A stretch of DNA of 64,000 nt from Eledone cirrhosa (taxonomy: Eukaryota). The position numbers were made by a program, and so were the translations under genes. The stretch covers positions 174,468,001 to 174,532,000 of the forward strand of contig OZ024741.1 in the NCBI GenBank assembly GCA_964016885.1, read 5' to 3'. Of the stretch, positions 7,811 to 63,506 are shown one piece after another. The stretch's first letter is position 1. Every line of letters starts with the position of its first letter. A model generated the notes under the pieces. That model did not search any database. It saw nothing but the letters and a program-made list of their open reading frames with translations, and was not told the origin of the DNA.

Positions 7811-7989
7811 TGTGTATATATATATATGTATATACATATATATATATATATATATAATAATATATATATACATGCACACACACACATATATATATATGCA
7901 TATGCGCACACTTATATATATTTATACTTAATTCTGCCTTCTATGTTGAAATTTCCCCTTCCTCTCCTAACTGATCATTCTTCTAAAGC

Positions 7990-8243
7990 TCGCTCTCTCT
8001 CTCTCTCTATCTCCTACTCTCACGCTCTCTCTCTCTCTCTCTCTCTTTGACTTATCCTCTCTTTCTTTCTCTCTAAATATTATGGTCTGGCCTATAATCT
8101 CAGCACGGAGAGAATCACGTTTCGCAGCAGAGGTAACGTTGCGATCACGTGACACCTCTGTCGGTGGGAGTGAGAATTTGAGATGTCATCGCCATGCGTG
8201 TTGCTTTGGCTTGCTGTGTGTCGTCGTAGTTTGGTTCTTTACT
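7990..8243 (+). promoter_or_regulatory. Probable promoter / 5' UTR: (CT)n tract followed by a CpG-rich patch with an E-box
   Basis: Local CpG enrichment at 8100-8230 in CpG-poor DNA; ATCACGTGAC at ~8144-8153; lies directly upstream of the long exon. Confidence 0.4.
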
Positions 8244-9592
8244 ATGACCCAGACACTCTCTCACATTGGCAATGTAGTAGTGTTTGAGGCATCTGGCGAC
8301 AACTGGTCGCACCAACAACAACAACAACACGACAATGGCAACAGCAGCAGCAGTTCACTGTGCTCTGTCGAAACGACGACTACGGCCTCTGGAGGAAGCG
8401 GTTCAGGTTTGGGTCTACATCATCAACAACAATTTCAACCTAACACTATCACTAATGTTACTGCTGCCAGTCTTACTAGTATTTCACAGCAATCAAAGCC
8501 CACTTCGAGTTCCCTTACAGATGCTTTCACTTCGACAACTGCTACTACTACTACTATCATCCCATCGAGTGCCCTGTCTACTCAATCTTCCTTTGGCGCT
8601 GTTCCTCTGTCTACTGCTATTGATGTTGCCCACGCTACGATCACCGCTTCCCTGGCTAACACCAACACCACCACTAACAACAATACCACTACCAACAACA
8701 ACACAACCAACACTGGAAACTTCCCTCCTTTCATTAACACTGCCACCACAACCATTAACACTATCAACAACATCAACAATAACAGTACGGTTATCCCGAC
8801 TTCTTGTGTTGCTGCCTCTAATAACTCCAACACTTCGACTTTGCATCAAGTAGAACCTGCTACTGTTGTCCCATATTCCTCTGGACATCGCTTATTGTTA
8901 TTATTACAACAACAACAGCAAGAACAACAGCAACAACAAACGTCAACGGCGATCGCCGCCAGCCCATCATTAGCTACGACAACGACAGCTTTGTTATCTC
9001 CTCGGTTGTTATTGTCGCCAGTTCGTTCATCTTCCTTGTCATTGTCTTCATTGAATTCATCCGGGAAAAAAATCGACAGCAATAGTAAGTTAGTGAAGAA
9101 ATCAGCCAACTTGCTTTTACCTTCATCATCATCATCGACTTGCACATTATCGCCACCCTCATTACCATTATTATCTTCTGGTTCCACTTCTGTTTGTTCT
9201 TCATCATCGTCATCATCTTACACCATTGTCTCTTCTTCCTTATTGTCGTCTTCTTCATCGTCCTCCTCCTCCTCTTCATCATCGTCGTCATCCTCGACGT
9301 CGTTATCTCACCGGACAGCCCGATCCCCGTCCACCACCTATGATAATAATAACAACAACTCCAGTGCTAACAACAACAGTACTGGCAGCCAACATACAAT
9401 TCTGCCCCTATCTCCCAGGAGTGACCCTTCTCGTAAATGCCGCGGATCGGTTGATTCCAGGGGTCCCCCCACTAACTCAGGTGAGACTACAACCACCGAA
9501 GAGGGACAACAGCGTATCTCCGCGACTTGCGGAGAGACAGCTGGCAAGGAACGTCTTTCAAAGATCGAAGAGAATATTGAATCATCTATCAG
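8244..9592 (+). CDS. Probable first coding exon of an unidentified gene; disordered Ser/Thr/Gln/Asn-rich N-terminus
   Basis: 504-codon open frame (8082-9596) with higher GC/CpG and codon-type homopolymer runs. It ends ...EENIESSIR at AG|GTAATT (phase 2), followed by AT-rich DNA. Start is uncertain (ATG 8082 or 8244). No recognisable domain and no downstream exon identified. Confidence 0.7.
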
Positions 9593-11055
9593 GTAATTTG
9601 TTTTTAATGTATTTTATCTTGTCTTTTCAAATTATTTTTTAACCTGTATTTATTTCGAACCGTGTTATATAATGATCCGAACAATTTCTTGTGTGTGTGG
9701 GAGGGAGGGGGGGGTTTATATCATTATACCCGTGTCATAGATGTGTATTATGGAGTTCTCAGGTGGGGTTACCAGGGAAAACGATTAATTTACGTCGGTT
9801 TTGAAAGCCGTATTCGTCCAATACACATTTTATAAAATCACAGGAAAAACAAATTTCGCCTTTAAAATTCTAACCAAACCAATCAACTAACTACTCTTAA
9901 AATTAAAAGAAAATTACTGTAATAGTAAAAAGTACCTATTTTTTCTGATAGAGTTGTTTTATAGTTTTTGTTGGGCGGTGAGATTGGCAGAAACGGTAGA
10001 GTGTCGGACAAGTGCTTTGTAGTATTTGGTTCCGTGACATTACGTTTTGCTTCAAAGCCCATCGTAGTCGATAAGAACGTGCACTGGAGTTCGGTGAAAT
10101 CGACAATACTCAGACCCGGTCTTGCATCGTTTAAATTTGATTAAAGAACCTGAACACAAAACACTGCATACGCAGTGGATCCTTGTTTATTTATATTCAA
10201 ACTATCATCCATTGCTTTGTAGTGTTTTATTAACTGTCAGATTAAAAATGCCGATATGGTATATTACACTGGTTTTGTTTGATTTCGCAGACAACAGTAT
10301 GGGTCGTGTTTAATTATTGCAATGATAACATTATCTCAGAATTTAAAATTATAACCCCTTGTAAAGATATTTCATGGCGGTGAATTGACAAGAGTCGTTA
10401 GAACTTTGGATAGAATGCTTTACGTTATTCGTTCCTGCTCTCTGCTCCCTGAGTTCAAAACCCGTCTAAATCAACTTTGCCTTCCATCGTTTGGAGGTTG
10501 ATAAAAAAAAAAAGTACCAGTTCAGTACTGAGGTTGATTCTTCCTCAATATCTCTCACTTATTCTCTGTTACTCTTTCTCTCTTCTTTGGAAAAAATCGG
10601 CTGTATTCAGACCTGAAGAGAGGATGGGCTCAACTAGGTTTAAAATGTCACTACAGCGCCCCTACGACTTCACCAGGAGTTACTTGTTCATACATACAAG
10701 ACACAGATATTTCCATTCATTATCATCTCTTGTCCTTCATTATCCTTTCCAAGGCATTCTTTGCCTTGTTATTTATTTCTCTTATTTATTTTTCTTCCTA
10801 AGAAAGCATCATTATGTTGATCTGAGTTTTTAATGTTGCAAACTAAATCTGTCTATTTCGTCATGGTATTCTTGGCGATTCAAACTTCATCTTTTGGTCT
10901 GCTGTTAATGAAAACTCAACTGTTTTATATGGTCAAATGAAATAAAAACATTCTGTGAGAACTGAGCTTCTATTCCGACACGTAATTTACTGTTTAGTAC
11001 TGAGGCTTATTTGTGTTGTTATTAATGTCGGCCCTTGTGGCCAATAAATGAAACA

Positions 11056-12886: not shown

Positions 12887-13066
12887 CGAAGGAAATGTGG
12901 TAAGGAACCAGGTGGACCATAACGCACCAAAGTACTCAATACTTAGGGTAGTAGAGTGGGTAATAGGAACCAGTAAGACCCCGACGGCTGAGCTCAAGCC
13001 GTTTCGACGGCGAATTAGCCGTCGAAACGGCTTGAGCTCAGCCGTCGGGGTCTTACTGGTTCCTAT
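12886..13066 (-). mobile_element. Penelope-like pLTR remnant between (TA)n tracts with a perfect 49-bp-arm hairpin
   Basis: Arms 12963-13011 and 13018-13066 are exact reverse complements and contain GAAA-CGGC..GCCG-TC; TTGAGTAC tail motif on the minus strand. Confidence 0.6.
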
Positions 13067-13074
13067 ATATATAT

Positions 13075-13205
13075 CCCTGATGATTTCTCACGAATGAAAC
13101 AATTCTAGTCCTGTAGAAGCTCCTCTATATTAAAACTTGTATACTCTGCTATGTAATGAGTACCTTACTTACTGTGGTTACCTCTGATTCAACCGGGAAT
13201 AACTT
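13075..13205 (+). mobile_element. 5'-truncated pLTR-like remnant with a hammerhead core
   Basis: CTGATGA (13077) ... GAAAC (13096) ... GTC (13108) ... TGAGTAC ... (TA)n; the 5' strand of stem I is missing. Confidence 0.45.
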
Positions 13206-13869
13206 ATATATATATATGTATTCGGTTAAATGTACACACACACACACATATATATGTGTGTGTGTGTACATTTAACTGAATACAATACAGACAGACTATA
13301 TATATACATGCATTCGGATGTGCACACGTATATGCGTATGTACGTATATATTAGAATAAATTAGTTTGTATTGATTTTTTATTATTTCTTACATTCCTAT
13401 AAATGTGAAATCCTTGTAGTAAATTAGAGATGAAATATAAAATGTTAGGTATGTTAGTGTTTTTTTCTTTCTTTTGTGATTAATACACACACTGTACACA
13501 ATAATTTCATTATAATTATTATTATTATACGCACACACACACATATATATATTCACGCACATATATATATATATAAATATTTATGCATACACACACACAC
13601 ACACATATATATACATAGATATATAATGTATGACTCCATTTGCGCCACATGGTGGCTAAACAACACGCAGAAGTGTCTGTGTTTGTTTTTTCTTCAGTGA
13701 ATACCAACAACGATGTCAACCTCAGCCTCATTCCCTGTCTTCTGCTCTTCCACACTTTTTCAACCAACGTACAACACCACCATCACCACCACCCTCTTAG
13801 CTTTCCCCACAACTACAATAAATTCTAGGCATTGAAAAATGACGTCAAAATCAATTCTCCCAGTGTTTT

Positions 13870-19181: not shown

Positions 19182-20445
19182 ATCATCATCATCATCATCA
19201 CCGTTTTACGTCCGTTCTTCCACGCTAACATGGGTTAGATGGGTTGTCCTGTTGTGGGCAGTGTCTGGTCGGCTGACCATGCCTTGCTCATACAGGAACT
19301 GATTTGGCTTGATTTCTACAGCTGGATGCCCTTCCTAACACCAACCTCATTTACAGTGAGTGCTGGGTGCTTTTTCGTGGTGCCTACACGTCCACTTTAC
19401 AGTGTGGGCTGGGTGCTTTTTTGCCGTGGCACCCCCACGACCACCTTGCGGTGGGGGGTGTGGGGGCATATTGTCTATATGCTTCAGCTTGTACCCATGG
19501 GAGGTCGGGTACTCTGTATTACTGCGTGACGCCAGAGGTCACGGTCGTGTGTCATTGCCTTTGAGAGGTGTAATTGGGTAAGGTCGGCTTTTATCACCTC
19601 ATCCCAGGTCATCTTGGGTCTCCCCACTCCGCGGTTTCCATCGACTTCTAGTGCTCTGCACCTTTTTATGCAGCTGTCATCCTTCATACGCATCACATGT
19701 CCATACCAGCGCAACCGCCTCTCCTGCACACAGCATTTGATTCCTCTTATGCTCAGTCTCTCTCTCAATTCATTTATGCTTTGTTGTTCACGTATATTAC
19801 TGTTACACATCCATCGGAGCATGCAGGCTTCGTTCCTCTCTAATCTACGTAAGTCTTCCACCTTCAGCGCCCAGGTCACACTACCATGCAACGTCGTTGT
19901 TCGGATACACGCATCATACCGTCTGCCTTTCATTCTGAGGGAGAAGCCTTTTGCAGCTAGCAGTGGTAGTAGTTCCCTAAACTTCTTCCATCCCATTCTT
20001 ACCCTAGTTATTGTACTTTCTGAACACCTACCTCCGCTGCTAATTCGGTCACCTAGGTAGCAGAAGCTGTCTACTGTTTCTACAGAGCCCTCCCAGAGAT
20101 TGGTGGTACTTGTTTCCTGTGGCTGTTTGCTGTCCCAGCACAGCTGCTGCATGTGAAGCCTACATTCTTAATTAAGCTTCCCGAGATCCCGCTACATCTC
20201 TTGTGTACCCATTGTTTACATTTGGGGCAGAGAATGGAGTTCCTACCTACACCTTTCCTACATACTGAGCAAGGCCATTTCCCTGAGGGGATCTGGGTTC
20301 TGTTTTCTCGTCTACTTACAAGGACCTTAGTCTTTGTCATGTTGACTTTGAGACCCTTTCTTTCTAGTCCCTGCTTCCAAGTTTGGAATTTATTCTCTAG
20401 TTCTACCATAGATTCAGCTATAAGTGCAAGGTCATCAGCATATAC
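19182..20445 (-). mobile_element. 5'-truncated RTE-like LINE: RT C-terminal half with an embedded C4HC3 finger, 3' UTR, (GAT)n tail
   Basis: YADDLALIAES at ~20442, GLKVNMTKTK, CSVC..CPKC..HKRC..CSSC, frameshift near 20100, FCYLGD, RRLRWYGHVMRM, GRPKMTW. Confidence 0.92.
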
Positions 20446-20739
20446 GGTTATGGTACATATGTATGTGTATATAAATGGTTACAGTACATATAAACAGCAA
20501 TGGTACATGAGATGGTGAATGTCAGGGAAGACTCATAATAAAGAAATAAGCTATTATCTGTATTATATGTATTGTACTTGATTTCTCACTTGTAAATCTA
20601 CACACACACACACCTATAGAAAGCAAAAGAGACATATAAATATATATAATCAATTATATGTATATACATACATATATTTAAACAATACAGGTATATATGT
20701 ATATATAATATAAGGAAGCCTTGGAGTGGGGAGACCCAA

Positions 20740-27152: not shown

Positions 27153-27170
27153 TATATATATATATATATA

Positions 27171-27489
27171 TATTATTCAAAATATTAATAAATGGAGAGA
27201 TTCACGTAATCAAAATATATGTTTTATTATATATATTTCGGAGGTATTGTGCTGTTTTTTCAGTACATCCTCATCAGATAAAATACCTGATGAGGACGTA
27301 CTGAAAAAACAGCACAGTACCTCCGAAATATATATAATAAAACATATATTTTGATTACGTGAATCTCTCCATTTATTAAAATTTTGAATAATATTAATAA
27401 CTCCAGAAAACTTCCTTGTTGAGTGCTTTTATTCTATTGTAAAACTATATTCATTGAATAATCAATGAACCTTGTTTAACATTTGGTCA
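27171..27489. mobile_element. Hammerhead-bearing fold-back element (PLE pLTR-like) in (TA)n
   Basis: 107-bp arms 27171-27277 / 27287-27393. Minus strand TTTTAT-CTGATGA-long stem II-GAAA-TATATA-TA-ATAAAA. TTGTTGAGTGCTTT tail. Confidence 0.75.
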
Positions 27490-36227: not shown

Positions 36228-36933
36228 CATCATCATCATCATCATCATCATCAACGTTTAACGTCCGTGTTCCACGCTTGCATGGGTTTGGACGGGGGTT
36301 TTCCCACTTGAGGCAAGAGTGATTGTCTTGCTCGCATAGGACTGTCTGGCAGGTTTTCTACAGTTGGATGCCCTTCCTAACACCAACCACATTTACAGTT
36401 GGGGGCTGGGAGGTTTTTACCGTGTTGCCTACACGGCCACATTACAGCGTGGACTGTGTGTTTTTTTTGTCGTGACACCTACACGATCTCATTTGTTTCG
36501 GCCTGGATGGTGTGGCACCAACATAACTTTACATAGAAGGGGGCGGTGTGGATGTGGTGGGGGTGGTGGGACGGGGTGTATTTTGTTAGAGATGCCTACT
36601 GACTTAGTAGGTTTTACTATGTATTTAGGTAAGGCGGGTCTTCTCTATTACTGAGTACCGCCAAAGGTCTCGGTCCAGTGACATTGTCTTGGAGAGGTGT
36701 AAGTGTGTGAGGTCGGAGTTTATCAGCTCGTCCCAGGTTTTTCTAGGTCTGCCTATTCCGTGGCTACCGTCTATCTTTATTGCCCTGCACTTTGTTATAC
36801 AGCTATCGACTTTCATGCGCATCACGTGTCCATACCAACGTAGCCTTCTCTCGAGTAAACAACATCTGATCCCTCTTATTTCTAATTTTTTCTTTAGTTC
36901 GTTTATGCTTTGCCGTTCACGTATATTACTATT

Positions 36934-36937
<4 letters not shown>
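36227..36937 (-). mobile_element. 5'-truncated RTE-like LINE (second subfamily) between (TA)n tracts
   Basis: MCNSNIRERQSINEL..ERRLRWYGHVMRM..GRPRKTW, 3' UTR, (GAT)n tail; 3'-end copies at 55372-55423 and 63890-63997. Confidence 0.9.
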
Positions 36938-36999
<62 letters not shown>

Positions 37000-38004
37000 T
37001 AGACAATATATATATATATATAAATAATAGACAAACAACTTCATCTTAATTACCAATAAGTGGACTGAGGGTCAGCTTCACCTCTTATGAAAACACTCAA
37101 GAGACCTCCTGGGAGATACAACCTCATAAAAGGATGGCTGAACCTATCCAAGTGTGAACCCATAATAAGAACAACAATAACAAAACATCTCCATTGCCAG
37201 TTATGACCAGATAGCAGTTATCTTGAGCCAGTTCTACTTTTAGAATGAGGTGCAGGGGTATGGTGGTGTTGGCAAAACAGCTTTAAATACTTCAGACATT
37301 CCTACAGAATACTAGAACCAACAAGCTGTATATCTCTTCAAACTTTCTAACAATTAAACTAGTACAAACTGTTACTTAGGCATTACATAACCAGCTTGAT
37401 CAATAAAGTATTTTAATATTCTCAGTAACTATTCATCAACATCAACATCATTTCCTTGTCCATCTCCACTCCCATCCTCCTACTCCATGCTAACATGGGA
37501 TGGATGAGACTTTTTGAGGCAGAATTCTATGGTCGGATGCCCTTCCCAACACCAGTGCCCCCTCCCTCTGCTCCTTTTTTTAAAAGTAAGGTACTGATCA
37601 TCGCATATTGAACTGATTGACTGTGAGACATAGACCTCACCACCTGTGTCAAAGGTGGTCTGAAGACACAGACAGATATGCACACATACACACACACACA
37701 TACAAGCACCACACACATGTAAAGGTGAAAAAAGTGAATGGAGTGTTCCAGCTGTTTGATTAATGGAACAGCCTGCATAATAAATCATTCCACAGGCATG
37801 CAATTCTCAGGGAGGTTCAGTGCAACAAAGCTGCCTCTCTCTGTCTTACACACACACAGACATGAGACAGTCTTGTGTACATTTTGTGTCTACCAGATTC
37901 ATTCACAAGATATTGGTTAGTCTGAAGCTATAGTAGAAGACATTTGACCAAAGTTCCATACAGTAGAAAAGAACTTGAAACCACATGGTTGTGAAGCGAA
38001 CTTC

Positions 38005-58464: not shown

Positions 58465-58612
58465 TGGGTTTTAAATATATACACCACATCCTATCCCCCC
58501 CCCCCCTCATTTTTTCCCAATCTCATATATCCATCTTGCTTTATTTTTCATATGTTGATTTAGCACTTCACTGCTCGCAAGTGTTTTTTAAGCTTCATAT
58601 CATGTTTCCCTA

Positions 58613-58679
58613 TTTTATCTGATGAGAACGCAAGTATCATCCCATGATGATATTTGTTTTTGAAATGCGCATAGTGGAG
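58613..58679 (+). ncRNA. Type I hammerhead ribozyme motif with extended stem II
   Basis: TTTTAT-CTGATGA-GAACGCAAGTATCATC(CCAT)GATGATATTTGTTTTT-GAAA-TGCGCA-TA-GTGGAG. Stem I is mostly G-U. Lies in a ~250-bp insert between TA/TG and TA tracts. Confidence 0.65.
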
Positions 58680-58740
58680 TACTTGGAACTCTTTTAACCA
58701 TCTTTTGATCTTATATTATATATATATGTATATATATATG

Positions 58741-62736: not shown

Positions 62737-62738
62737 CG

Positions 62739-63111
62739 ATATTAACAAATGGAAACTATATTTATAAAACCATATTTATTTCATTATACATATTTCAAGG
62801 ACACCAAGTTAAATTATGGTGTGCTTTCATCAGATAAAATATAATATAGAGCAGTTTTATAAATAAATATTGACATACCCTTAAAGAATGCGACCATTTC
62901 TGTTGGAAGCTCCCGGATAGTGATTATATTTTATCTGATGAAAGCACACCATAATTTAACTTGGTGTCCTTGAAATATGTATAATGAAATAAATATGCTT
63001 TTATAAATATAGTTTCCATTTGTTAATATATCATATTTTTACTCCAATAATTTGTTGAGTGCTTTGTTATAAAAATATTTGCATGTTGGATCCCAACAAT
63101 TTAAATAGAAC

Positions 63112-63114
<3 letters not shown>
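62739..63114. mobile_element. Hammerhead-bearing fold-back element (PLE pLTR-like) in (TA)n
   Basis: Arms 62739-62845 / 62923-63029 (one mismatch seen) with a 77-bp spacer. + strand TTTTAT-CTGATGA-AAGCACACCA(10 nt)TGGTGTCCTT-GAAA-TATGTA-TA-ATGAAA. TTGTTGAGTGCTTT tail. Confidence 0.8.
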
Positions 63115-63149
<35 letters not shown>

Positions 63150-63152
<3 letters not shown>

Positions 63153-63352
63153 AATGGAAGTAGAGCATATTCGAAGCTCGAGCCGCAGCTAAGCCGACGA
63201 ATGCATTCAGAAGTGCAGCCAAGCACTCAATAAGGTATAAAACCTTAGAGTAATAACATACAGTTTAAAGGGCTTTGCAAATTGAAGATAGCGACCGGTA
63301 ATTCAGCCGCGGGGACCATAGCAACGAAAGAACTGACTCGCGAGAAAAAATA
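63150..63352 (-). mobile_element. CpG-rich pLTR-tail-like insert between (TA)n tracts
   Basis: Minus strand TATTGAGTGCTT ~70 nt before (TA)n, as in the hammerhead elements; no hammerhead core seen. Confidence 0.4.
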
Positions 63353-63506
63353 CATACATATATATATATATGTATCTATGTATATGTATGTATATATATG
63401 TATGTATATGTATGTATATATATATGTATGTATATGTATGTATATATATGTATGTATATGTATGTATATATATGTATGTATATGTATATATGTGTGTGTG
63501 TATGTG

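Follow-up and report, generated by a model that had tools for sequence, protein, structure and literature searches.

Hammerhead motifs with a long stem II mismatched at pair 4, at the ends of likely Penelope-like elements in Eledone cirrhosa

We identified five copies of a hammerhead motif at three insertion sites (A, B, and C) in the analysed window, a stretch of 64,000 nucleotides of the Eledone cirrhosa genome (assembly GCA_964016885.1, contig OZ024741.1). They are probably type I hammerheads that combine a palindromic stem III with a long stem II mismatched at pair 4, situated at what are likely the pseudo-LTR ends of Penelope-like elements (PLEs), and they are predicted to cut after AUA only as dimers paired through the palindrome. 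The core, C3 U4 G5 A6 N7 G8 A9, G12 A13 A14 A15.1, and U16.1 H17 by the criteria in the accessible text of Perreault 2011 (PMC3088659), is intact in 5/5 copies, which keep all eleven fixed positions despite three divergent stems. Helices I, II, and III close this core, with helix I open, in four of the five copies, the exception being B(+). Every copy has a palindromic stem III of the dimer type, 8 nt long, perfect in B and C and containing G-U in A. Pair 4 of stem II is pyrimidine-pyrimidine in all five copies, representing three independent insertions.

At site A, the plus-strand copy A(+) spans 62927-62991. The flank TATTTTAT precedes CTGATGA at 62935 (core CUGAUGA, 62935-62941), which is followed by a 10-pair stem II (62942-62951/62962-62971) with a C.C mismatch at pair 4 (62945 and 62968), GAAA (62972-62975), the 8-nt palindrome of stem III (62975-62982), and H17 at 62983. 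Stem I is formed by 62927-62934 and 62984-62991, the 3' strand after H17 pairing with the U-rich 5' flank at eight of eight positions. The A(+) arm (62923-63114, plus strand) is a 5'-truncated copy of the repeat end and bears a 3' tail (~63042-63114) that enters (TA)n and is absent from the A(-) arm. The latter (62737-62922, minus strand) is an inverted copy with longer native upstream sequence and ends in (TA)n. Its hammerhead (62777-62841, minus strand; C3 at 62833, pair 4 at 62823/62800, H17 at 62785) corresponds, 62833(-) to 62935(+), to that of A(+) without a difference across the 65-nt motif. The 77-nt spacer at site A is the native upstream sequence of the A(-) arm and lengthens stem I of A(-) to ~26 pairs, interrupted by bulges of 1 and 5 nt; with this extended stem I, A(-) has a folding z-score of -2.88 (0/200 shuffles). 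Short-unit folding z-scores range from -1.45 to -2.38. The U-rich 5' strand of stem I (62927-62934, 27278-27285, and 58611-58618) is identical across the three families, the 3' strand varying among purines, and the conservation of the 5' strand exceeds the needs of pairing.

Insertion B (27165-27488) consists of head-to-head inverted arms at 27165-27280 and 27284-27399. Hammerhead B(-) (27220-27285, minus strand; CTGATGA at 27277, H17 at 27228) retains the full 5' strand of stem I and has U.C at pair 4 (27267/27243); its pair 8 is mismatched as well (C.A). Its counterpart B(+) (27279-27344, plus strand; 27287(+), the partner of 27277(-)) has C.C at pair 4 (27297/27321), with the remaining nine pairs of stem II intact. 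B(+) is unable to form stem I because it is truncated at the core; A.C at 1.1-2.1 follows the truncation. Hammerhead C is a single copy (58611-58681, plus strand; CTGATGA at 58619, H17 at 58673) with a 16-pair stem II, C.U at pair 4 (58629/58658), and a palindrome that pairs at 8/8 positions, and its site sits between microsatellite runs. A sequence-only reading of the window had described three copies starting TTTTAT-CTGATGA. The arrangement that it saw, with CTGATGA at 62935(+), 58619(+), and 27277(-), each after TATTTTAT and before stem II, GAAA, a 6-mer, and TA, holds, and the number becomes five copies at three sites. The copy that it placed at 27222-27283 turned out to be two B copies spliced together, TTTTAT coming from B(-) and the quoted perfect stem II from B(+). 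The pyrimidine-pyrimidine pair 4 that it reported is borne out at 62945/62968, 58629/58658, 27297/27321, and 27267/27243, as is the conserved position of the mismatch, in 5/5 copies.

The same reading regarded the stem II sequences as unrelated. A and B contradict this: 7/10 of their stem II pairs differ, every one by transitions on both sides, and the chance of such a pattern for unrelated changes is ~0.0005. Judging from their sequences, the two stems appear to be homologous and to have changed by the usual G-U route. A and B are kin and not independent, because the changes are all transitions and the tail motifs are in common. Across four distinct rows, both partners differ at 5/7 of the aligned stem II pairs, and pair 4 stays open in 4/4. 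The covariation score of 0.451 was reached by 1/500 shuffles and the count of pairs with two-sided changes by 53/500, a test that is weak alone because the structure was derived from these very sequences. Of the earlier argument from compensatory change to selection, the compensatory change in stem II and the fixed position of the mismatch are supported, across three related families.

Public reads give a broader view of family A. Reads from four of the eleven listed runs (X1, X5, X6, and X9) were aligned to A(-), 62738-62922, at 80% likeness, with matches from 5,403 contigs in X1, 27,639 reads in X9, 45 contigs in X5, and 2 contigs in X6. Family A is high-copy, and read depth on A(-) drops toward the 5' side. 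Both pair-4 bases of A(-) are G on the plus strand. The changes of G at a level of at least 2% in X1 (five G>A, one G>C, and two G>T) were all assigned to positions other than pair 4; because the pair-4 bases are invariant in X1 at this level, C.C is the state of family A and not a decay of the window copy. The pair-repairing G>C class was also assigned elsewhere in X9 and X5. A further 29 rows were tallied without a position and include, for X9, two places with G>A and four with G>T, and for X5 a single G>T. Low variation alone does not show selection at pair 4, because X1 has similarly little change at pairs 3, 8, and 9. The change map comprises 30 of the 40 listed rows, the other 10, upstream of 62868, being left out. 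Loop II and the bulges of stem I account for most of the listed changes and indels. The core has a single listed change, in the free position 7, and one-sided changes in the stem mostly retain pairing via G-U. A frequent change makes the A palindrome perfect (37% of X1 depth), and pair 1 would be disrupted by a U>C change at 62797 that 20% of the first-mate-minus reads of X9 carry.

The rates of change are per-site tallies, without read-level linkage between stem II pairs. In X9 first-mate-plus reads, the two sides are similar at pair 2 (15.5% and 22.0%) and at pair 6 (54.1% and 49.5%). The sides are unequal in X1 (26.8% vs 0.7% at pair 2 and 29.3% vs 2.2% at pair 6) and in X5 (59% vs 24% and 76% vs 27%), where the commoner change, alone, disrupts the pair. 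This imbalance may be explained by divergent contigs not aligning across the loop. Two X9 stacks, inspected by eye, have stems of ~13-14 pairs with C.C at pair 4, G-C at pair 2, and U-A at pair 6. In the stack of 10,073 reads, which ends at a restriction site, the stem has ~14 pairs; pair 4 is C.C, pair 6 U-A, and pair 7 G-U, the left side of pairs 1-3 being taken from three X1 contigs (G-C at pair 2). The stack of 5,375 reads covers the complete left arm, which keeps its register with the core and has G, C, and U at pairs 2, 4, and 6, respectively; in this stack, pair 8 is an A.A mismatch and core position 7 is A. Each RAD stack may be a single locus and was counted as one stem.

Selection is likely to keep the pair-4 mismatch. 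The mismatch could instead be neutral, having arisen once in the ancestor of families A-C of PLE-type hammerheads and persisted through transition-biased change at no cost from the weaker stem, an explanation that we consider possible but somewhat unlikely. It is in line with the 7/7 changed pairs of A and B that differ by transitions alone, with their common tail motifs, and with the C-to-U drift at pair 4 in B(-) and C. Single published PLE hammerheads also have pair-4 mismatches, U.U in Clonorchis(2) and C.A in S. purpuratus(1), which are not a family rule. Transitions by themselves leave a pyrimidine-pyrimidine pair as such, and its crude chance at an unconstrained site is 0.06; for C opposite a pyrimidine, the crude chance is 0.005. 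Against neutrality, a single transversion would repair pair 4, and this change is not found at 2% in three runs. The loops of A and B are unrelated in sequence, but the left position 4 of stem II is C in A, B(+), and C, and apart from pair 4 every stem II pair is intact in these copies.

The predicted energetics point to dimers. Stem III would be unfavourable in a monomer (+4.7 kcal/mol), whereas the palindrome duplex is predicted to be favourable (-2.2, -3.2, and -10.5 kcal/mol for A, B, and C, respectively), so that helix III is predicted to be stable only as a dimer duplex. For copy C, the predicted dimer is a double hammerhead with stem III and a swapped stem I; the dimer predicted for copy A contained no active form. 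Cleavage as dimers is the established mode of such motifs (PMC4209133 and the accessible part of PMC6765202), and AUA is listed among natural cleavage triplets in the available portion of PMC1636495. In tandem transcripts of a master element, two hammerheads would form an 8-pair stem III in trans and cleave, the predicted cut after AUA requiring two copies paired via the palindrome. The cut sites predicted earlier, after 62983 and 58673, coincide with H17 as positioned by sequence. The window copies themselves are probably inactive relics, because each inverted pair has its motifs on opposite strands; in the predicted fold of B(-), the core is buried in the inverted repeat.

What the mismatch might do is suggested by the geometry of the ribozyme. 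In the active fold, as described in the accessible text of PMC6155905, helices I and II lie side by side and touch away from the core. Since both helices are long here and no conserved partner loop is visible, the role that we tentatively prefer for the mismatch is that it might be a narrow flexible joint where helix II meets helix I, letting the long helices pack without canonical loop-loop contacts. For the tertiary contact suggested in the earlier reading, the obvious partner would be the 5-nt bulge of the extended stem I; this bulge is highly variable in the reads, and a canonical loop-loop contact there is therefore disfavoured. A broader and more doubtful extension is a lineage-wide hammerhead subclass, in which long helices would dock via C.C at 10.4-11.4 and the U-rich helix I strand, replacing the loop-loop contact and setting the rate of retroelement RNA cleavage.

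Selection could also act on the mismatch as a mark and not as an RNA-RNA contact, either recognised by the element's own RT-endonuclease or breaking the duplex and so evading double-stranded-RNA enzymes; we judge this unlikely. Recognition by a protein was considered because the Poseidon hammerhead of Anolis cleaves only with its protein, according to the accessible text of PMC11167929, and the lack of a visible conserved partner loop and the strongly variable 5-nt stem I bulge would fit it. For a duplex-breaking mark, however, a fixed position beside the core would be unnecessary.

The repeat bearing the hammerheads at its ends is likely a Penelope-like element. Because no PLE open reading frame (ORF) or motif lies in the window, this identity is inferred from layout. 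The PLE insertion footprint, as the accessible part of bioRxiv 2021.04.23.441226 describes it, combines an inverted copy that is truncated at its 5' side, a one-ended tail, and a microsatellite bias. In insertions A and B, the arms (119 and 116 nt, 95% complementary) form inverted pairs placed head to head. One arm halts at a common motif, followed by (TA)n, and the other has a further tail of ~73-89 nt, both tails having a motif in common; in B, the tail occurs on the plus arm only (to ~27488), with (TA)n on both sides. The inverted 5'-truncated copy beside the pseudo-LTR is thus found at 2/3 sites (A and B), and the one-ended tails of these sites, ~73-89 nt, are longer than the 30-40 bp in the available description of PLEs. 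All three sites have (TA)n at their ends, as expected from a microsatellite insertion bias. A further ~200-nt element at 63150-63355 (minus strand), between (TA)n runs and adjoining the tail of A, has the A/B end motif before (TA)n and the tail motif in reversed order, without a CUGANGA core; it is possibly another PLE-type end.

Neither the ORF list nor a motif scan of the 64-kb window found an ORF or remnant of a PLE reverse transcriptase or GIY-YIG domain, the copies being short. The window does contain broken LINE reverse-transcriptase fragments at 19484-20478 and 36625-37071 (both minus strand), with RVT_1 and PHD matches within 20083-20478, and we take these fragments to be RTE-like. An ORF of 541 codons (7971-9596, plus strand), of low complexity and with abundant Q, T, S, and N, matched no Pfam family, and a 65-bp tandem satellite of at least 86 units, ~96% alike, extends from 1 to ~5850.

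Of the four hallmarks of minimal PLE hammerheads (Cervera 2014), two are missing or patchy in the window copies. The larger-than-usual helix II is present, with 10, 10, and 16 pairs vs the published 7-8, and so is the palindromic 15.2-16.2 with loop 3. The extra nucleotide between A9 and 10.1 is absent in 5/5 copies, as it is in 2/56 published representatives (PMC4209133). G10.1-C11.1 is G-C in B only, being G-U in C and A-U in A; A10.1-U11.1 occurs in 3/56 of PMC4209133. A shifted register of stem II that supplies an extra nucleotide after A9 was rejected, as it disrupts pairing (by eye).

The repeats might be short non-autonomous units, similar to retrozymes and moved by PLE machinery, instead of truncated ends of autonomous PLEs. 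No ORF adjoins any copy, and animal retrozymes have been proposed, in the accessible text of preprint 10.64898/2026.07.22.740005, to be derivatives of PLE pseudo-LTRs and often monomers. A rare backward joint from 62885 to 62756 (depth 7 in X1 and 2 reads in X9) could be a short head-to-tail family A unit elsewhere in the genome. We nevertheless hold such an origin to be improbable: head-to-tail tandem units, each with a hammerhead, were not found in the window, depth declines steadily toward the 5' side, as under truncation, and canonical retrozyme hammerheads have a 4-bp helix II. Truncated ends of PLEs remain the reading that we prefer.

The loose pattern CTGATGA-N10-40-GAAA has 13 matches in the window against 1.49 expected, a number reached in 0/100 shuffles. 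Four of the 13 passed the stem II filter, and the fifth copy, B(-), was missed by it because of its extra mismatch; the other eight fall outside the hammerhead family. One match, at 13077-13099, has poor stems and follows a near-perfect GC-rich palindrome (12945-13100, arms of ~55 bp) near TA runs; another palindrome, at 13216-13285, has (CA)n/(TG)n at its centre. With a model made from the five copies, no sixth copy was found in the window, the next match scoring 19.9 bits. By pattern scan, 2 and 4 loci in viral contigs, 14 in metagenomes, and none in prokaryote genomes were obtained, none of them related; the best of these 20 outside loci scored 26.4 bits, where the window copies score 63-85, and a proper stem II was absent from the six alignments examined. 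Among the Rfam covariance models, no hammerhead family appeared in the 23 matches for A, the 4 for C, or the 150 of 184 matches listed for the window. The microRNA models of Rfam that matched at A do so through the inverted repeat, far below gathering scores, and were discarded. It is very improbable that these are chance matches, or DNA palindromes lacking ribozyme function, since the absence of an Rfam hammerhead match for A or C, the 8/13 loose matches outside the family, and the modest short-unit z-scores are set against eleven fixed core positions intact in 5/5 copies with three divergent stems and read variation that spares the core save position 7.

Canonical metazoan type I traits are not seen in these hammerheads: helix II has 10-16 pairs vs 4 bp, and loop II and the stem I bulge are variable. 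For the pseudo-LTR hammerheads of metazoan PLEs, Cervera and De la Pena (2014, PMC4209133) had described a helix II "larger than usual", so that the contrast drawn earlier, in which minimal PLE hammerheads have a short stem II, was overstated; what stands is 10-16 pairs here vs at most 8 bp in their 56 representatives, as counted by eye in machine-read text. The copies share type I topology and an intact core with the small palindromic helix III hammerheads of that study (Aedes, D. willistoni, M. japonicus, and S. kowalevskii(2)). They also resemble its PLE hammerheads in a palindromic helix III implying dimers, a U-rich 5' flank, a helix II beyond canonical length, nearby opposite-strand copies, mostly solo truncated occurrence, and covarying families within one genome. 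They differ in the fixed pyrimidine-pyrimidine pair 4, any pair-4 mismatch occurring in 2/56 representatives (U.U and C.A) and C.C in 0/56 (by eye), and in the helix I of family A, where a long extension adds to the 8 pairs, with no ORF seen here.

Similarities extend to other groups, as far as the accessible texts describe them. The small-stem-III variants of Lunse, Weinberg and Breaker, as summarised in PMC6765202, are likewise a PLE-associated type with a short palindromic stem III and dimer cleavage, and non-LTR animal retrozymes (PMC7229834; preprint 10.64898/2026.07.22.740005) have a type I hammerhead in short non-coding repeats. In axolotl, the HHR_Amex2 family shares a U.U mismatch at the helix II base (PMC7229834). 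Chrysovirus type I hammerheads (PMC13725137) also have a long helix II with a conserved irregularity halfway along it and no clear loop-loop contact, but theirs is a bulged A in a 6-bp stem, with a long stable helix III, activity as monomers, and a location in viral UTRs. The accessible part of the Octopus vulgaris repeat annotation paper (PMC13282606) does not mention hammerheads. A conserved pair-4 mismatch was not found described in the literature searched, where the variants of Lunse et al., compared via a review summary only, may include it. The fixed mismatch is a real feature at the level of the family, and the arrangement of element and hammerhead is of a known kind.

According to the accessible literature, PLE hammerheads cleave poorly in vitro and are said to be devoid of tertiary contacts, and what they contribute to transposition is an open question. 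A family-wide fixed mismatch beside the core offers a precise handle on whether these ribozymes have a hidden tertiary or protein contact. If the mismatch does not matter, the copies described here would be one more PLE hammerhead family missed by Rfam, of value for annotation only; if it does, they would represent an additional way to stabilise the hammerhead fold.
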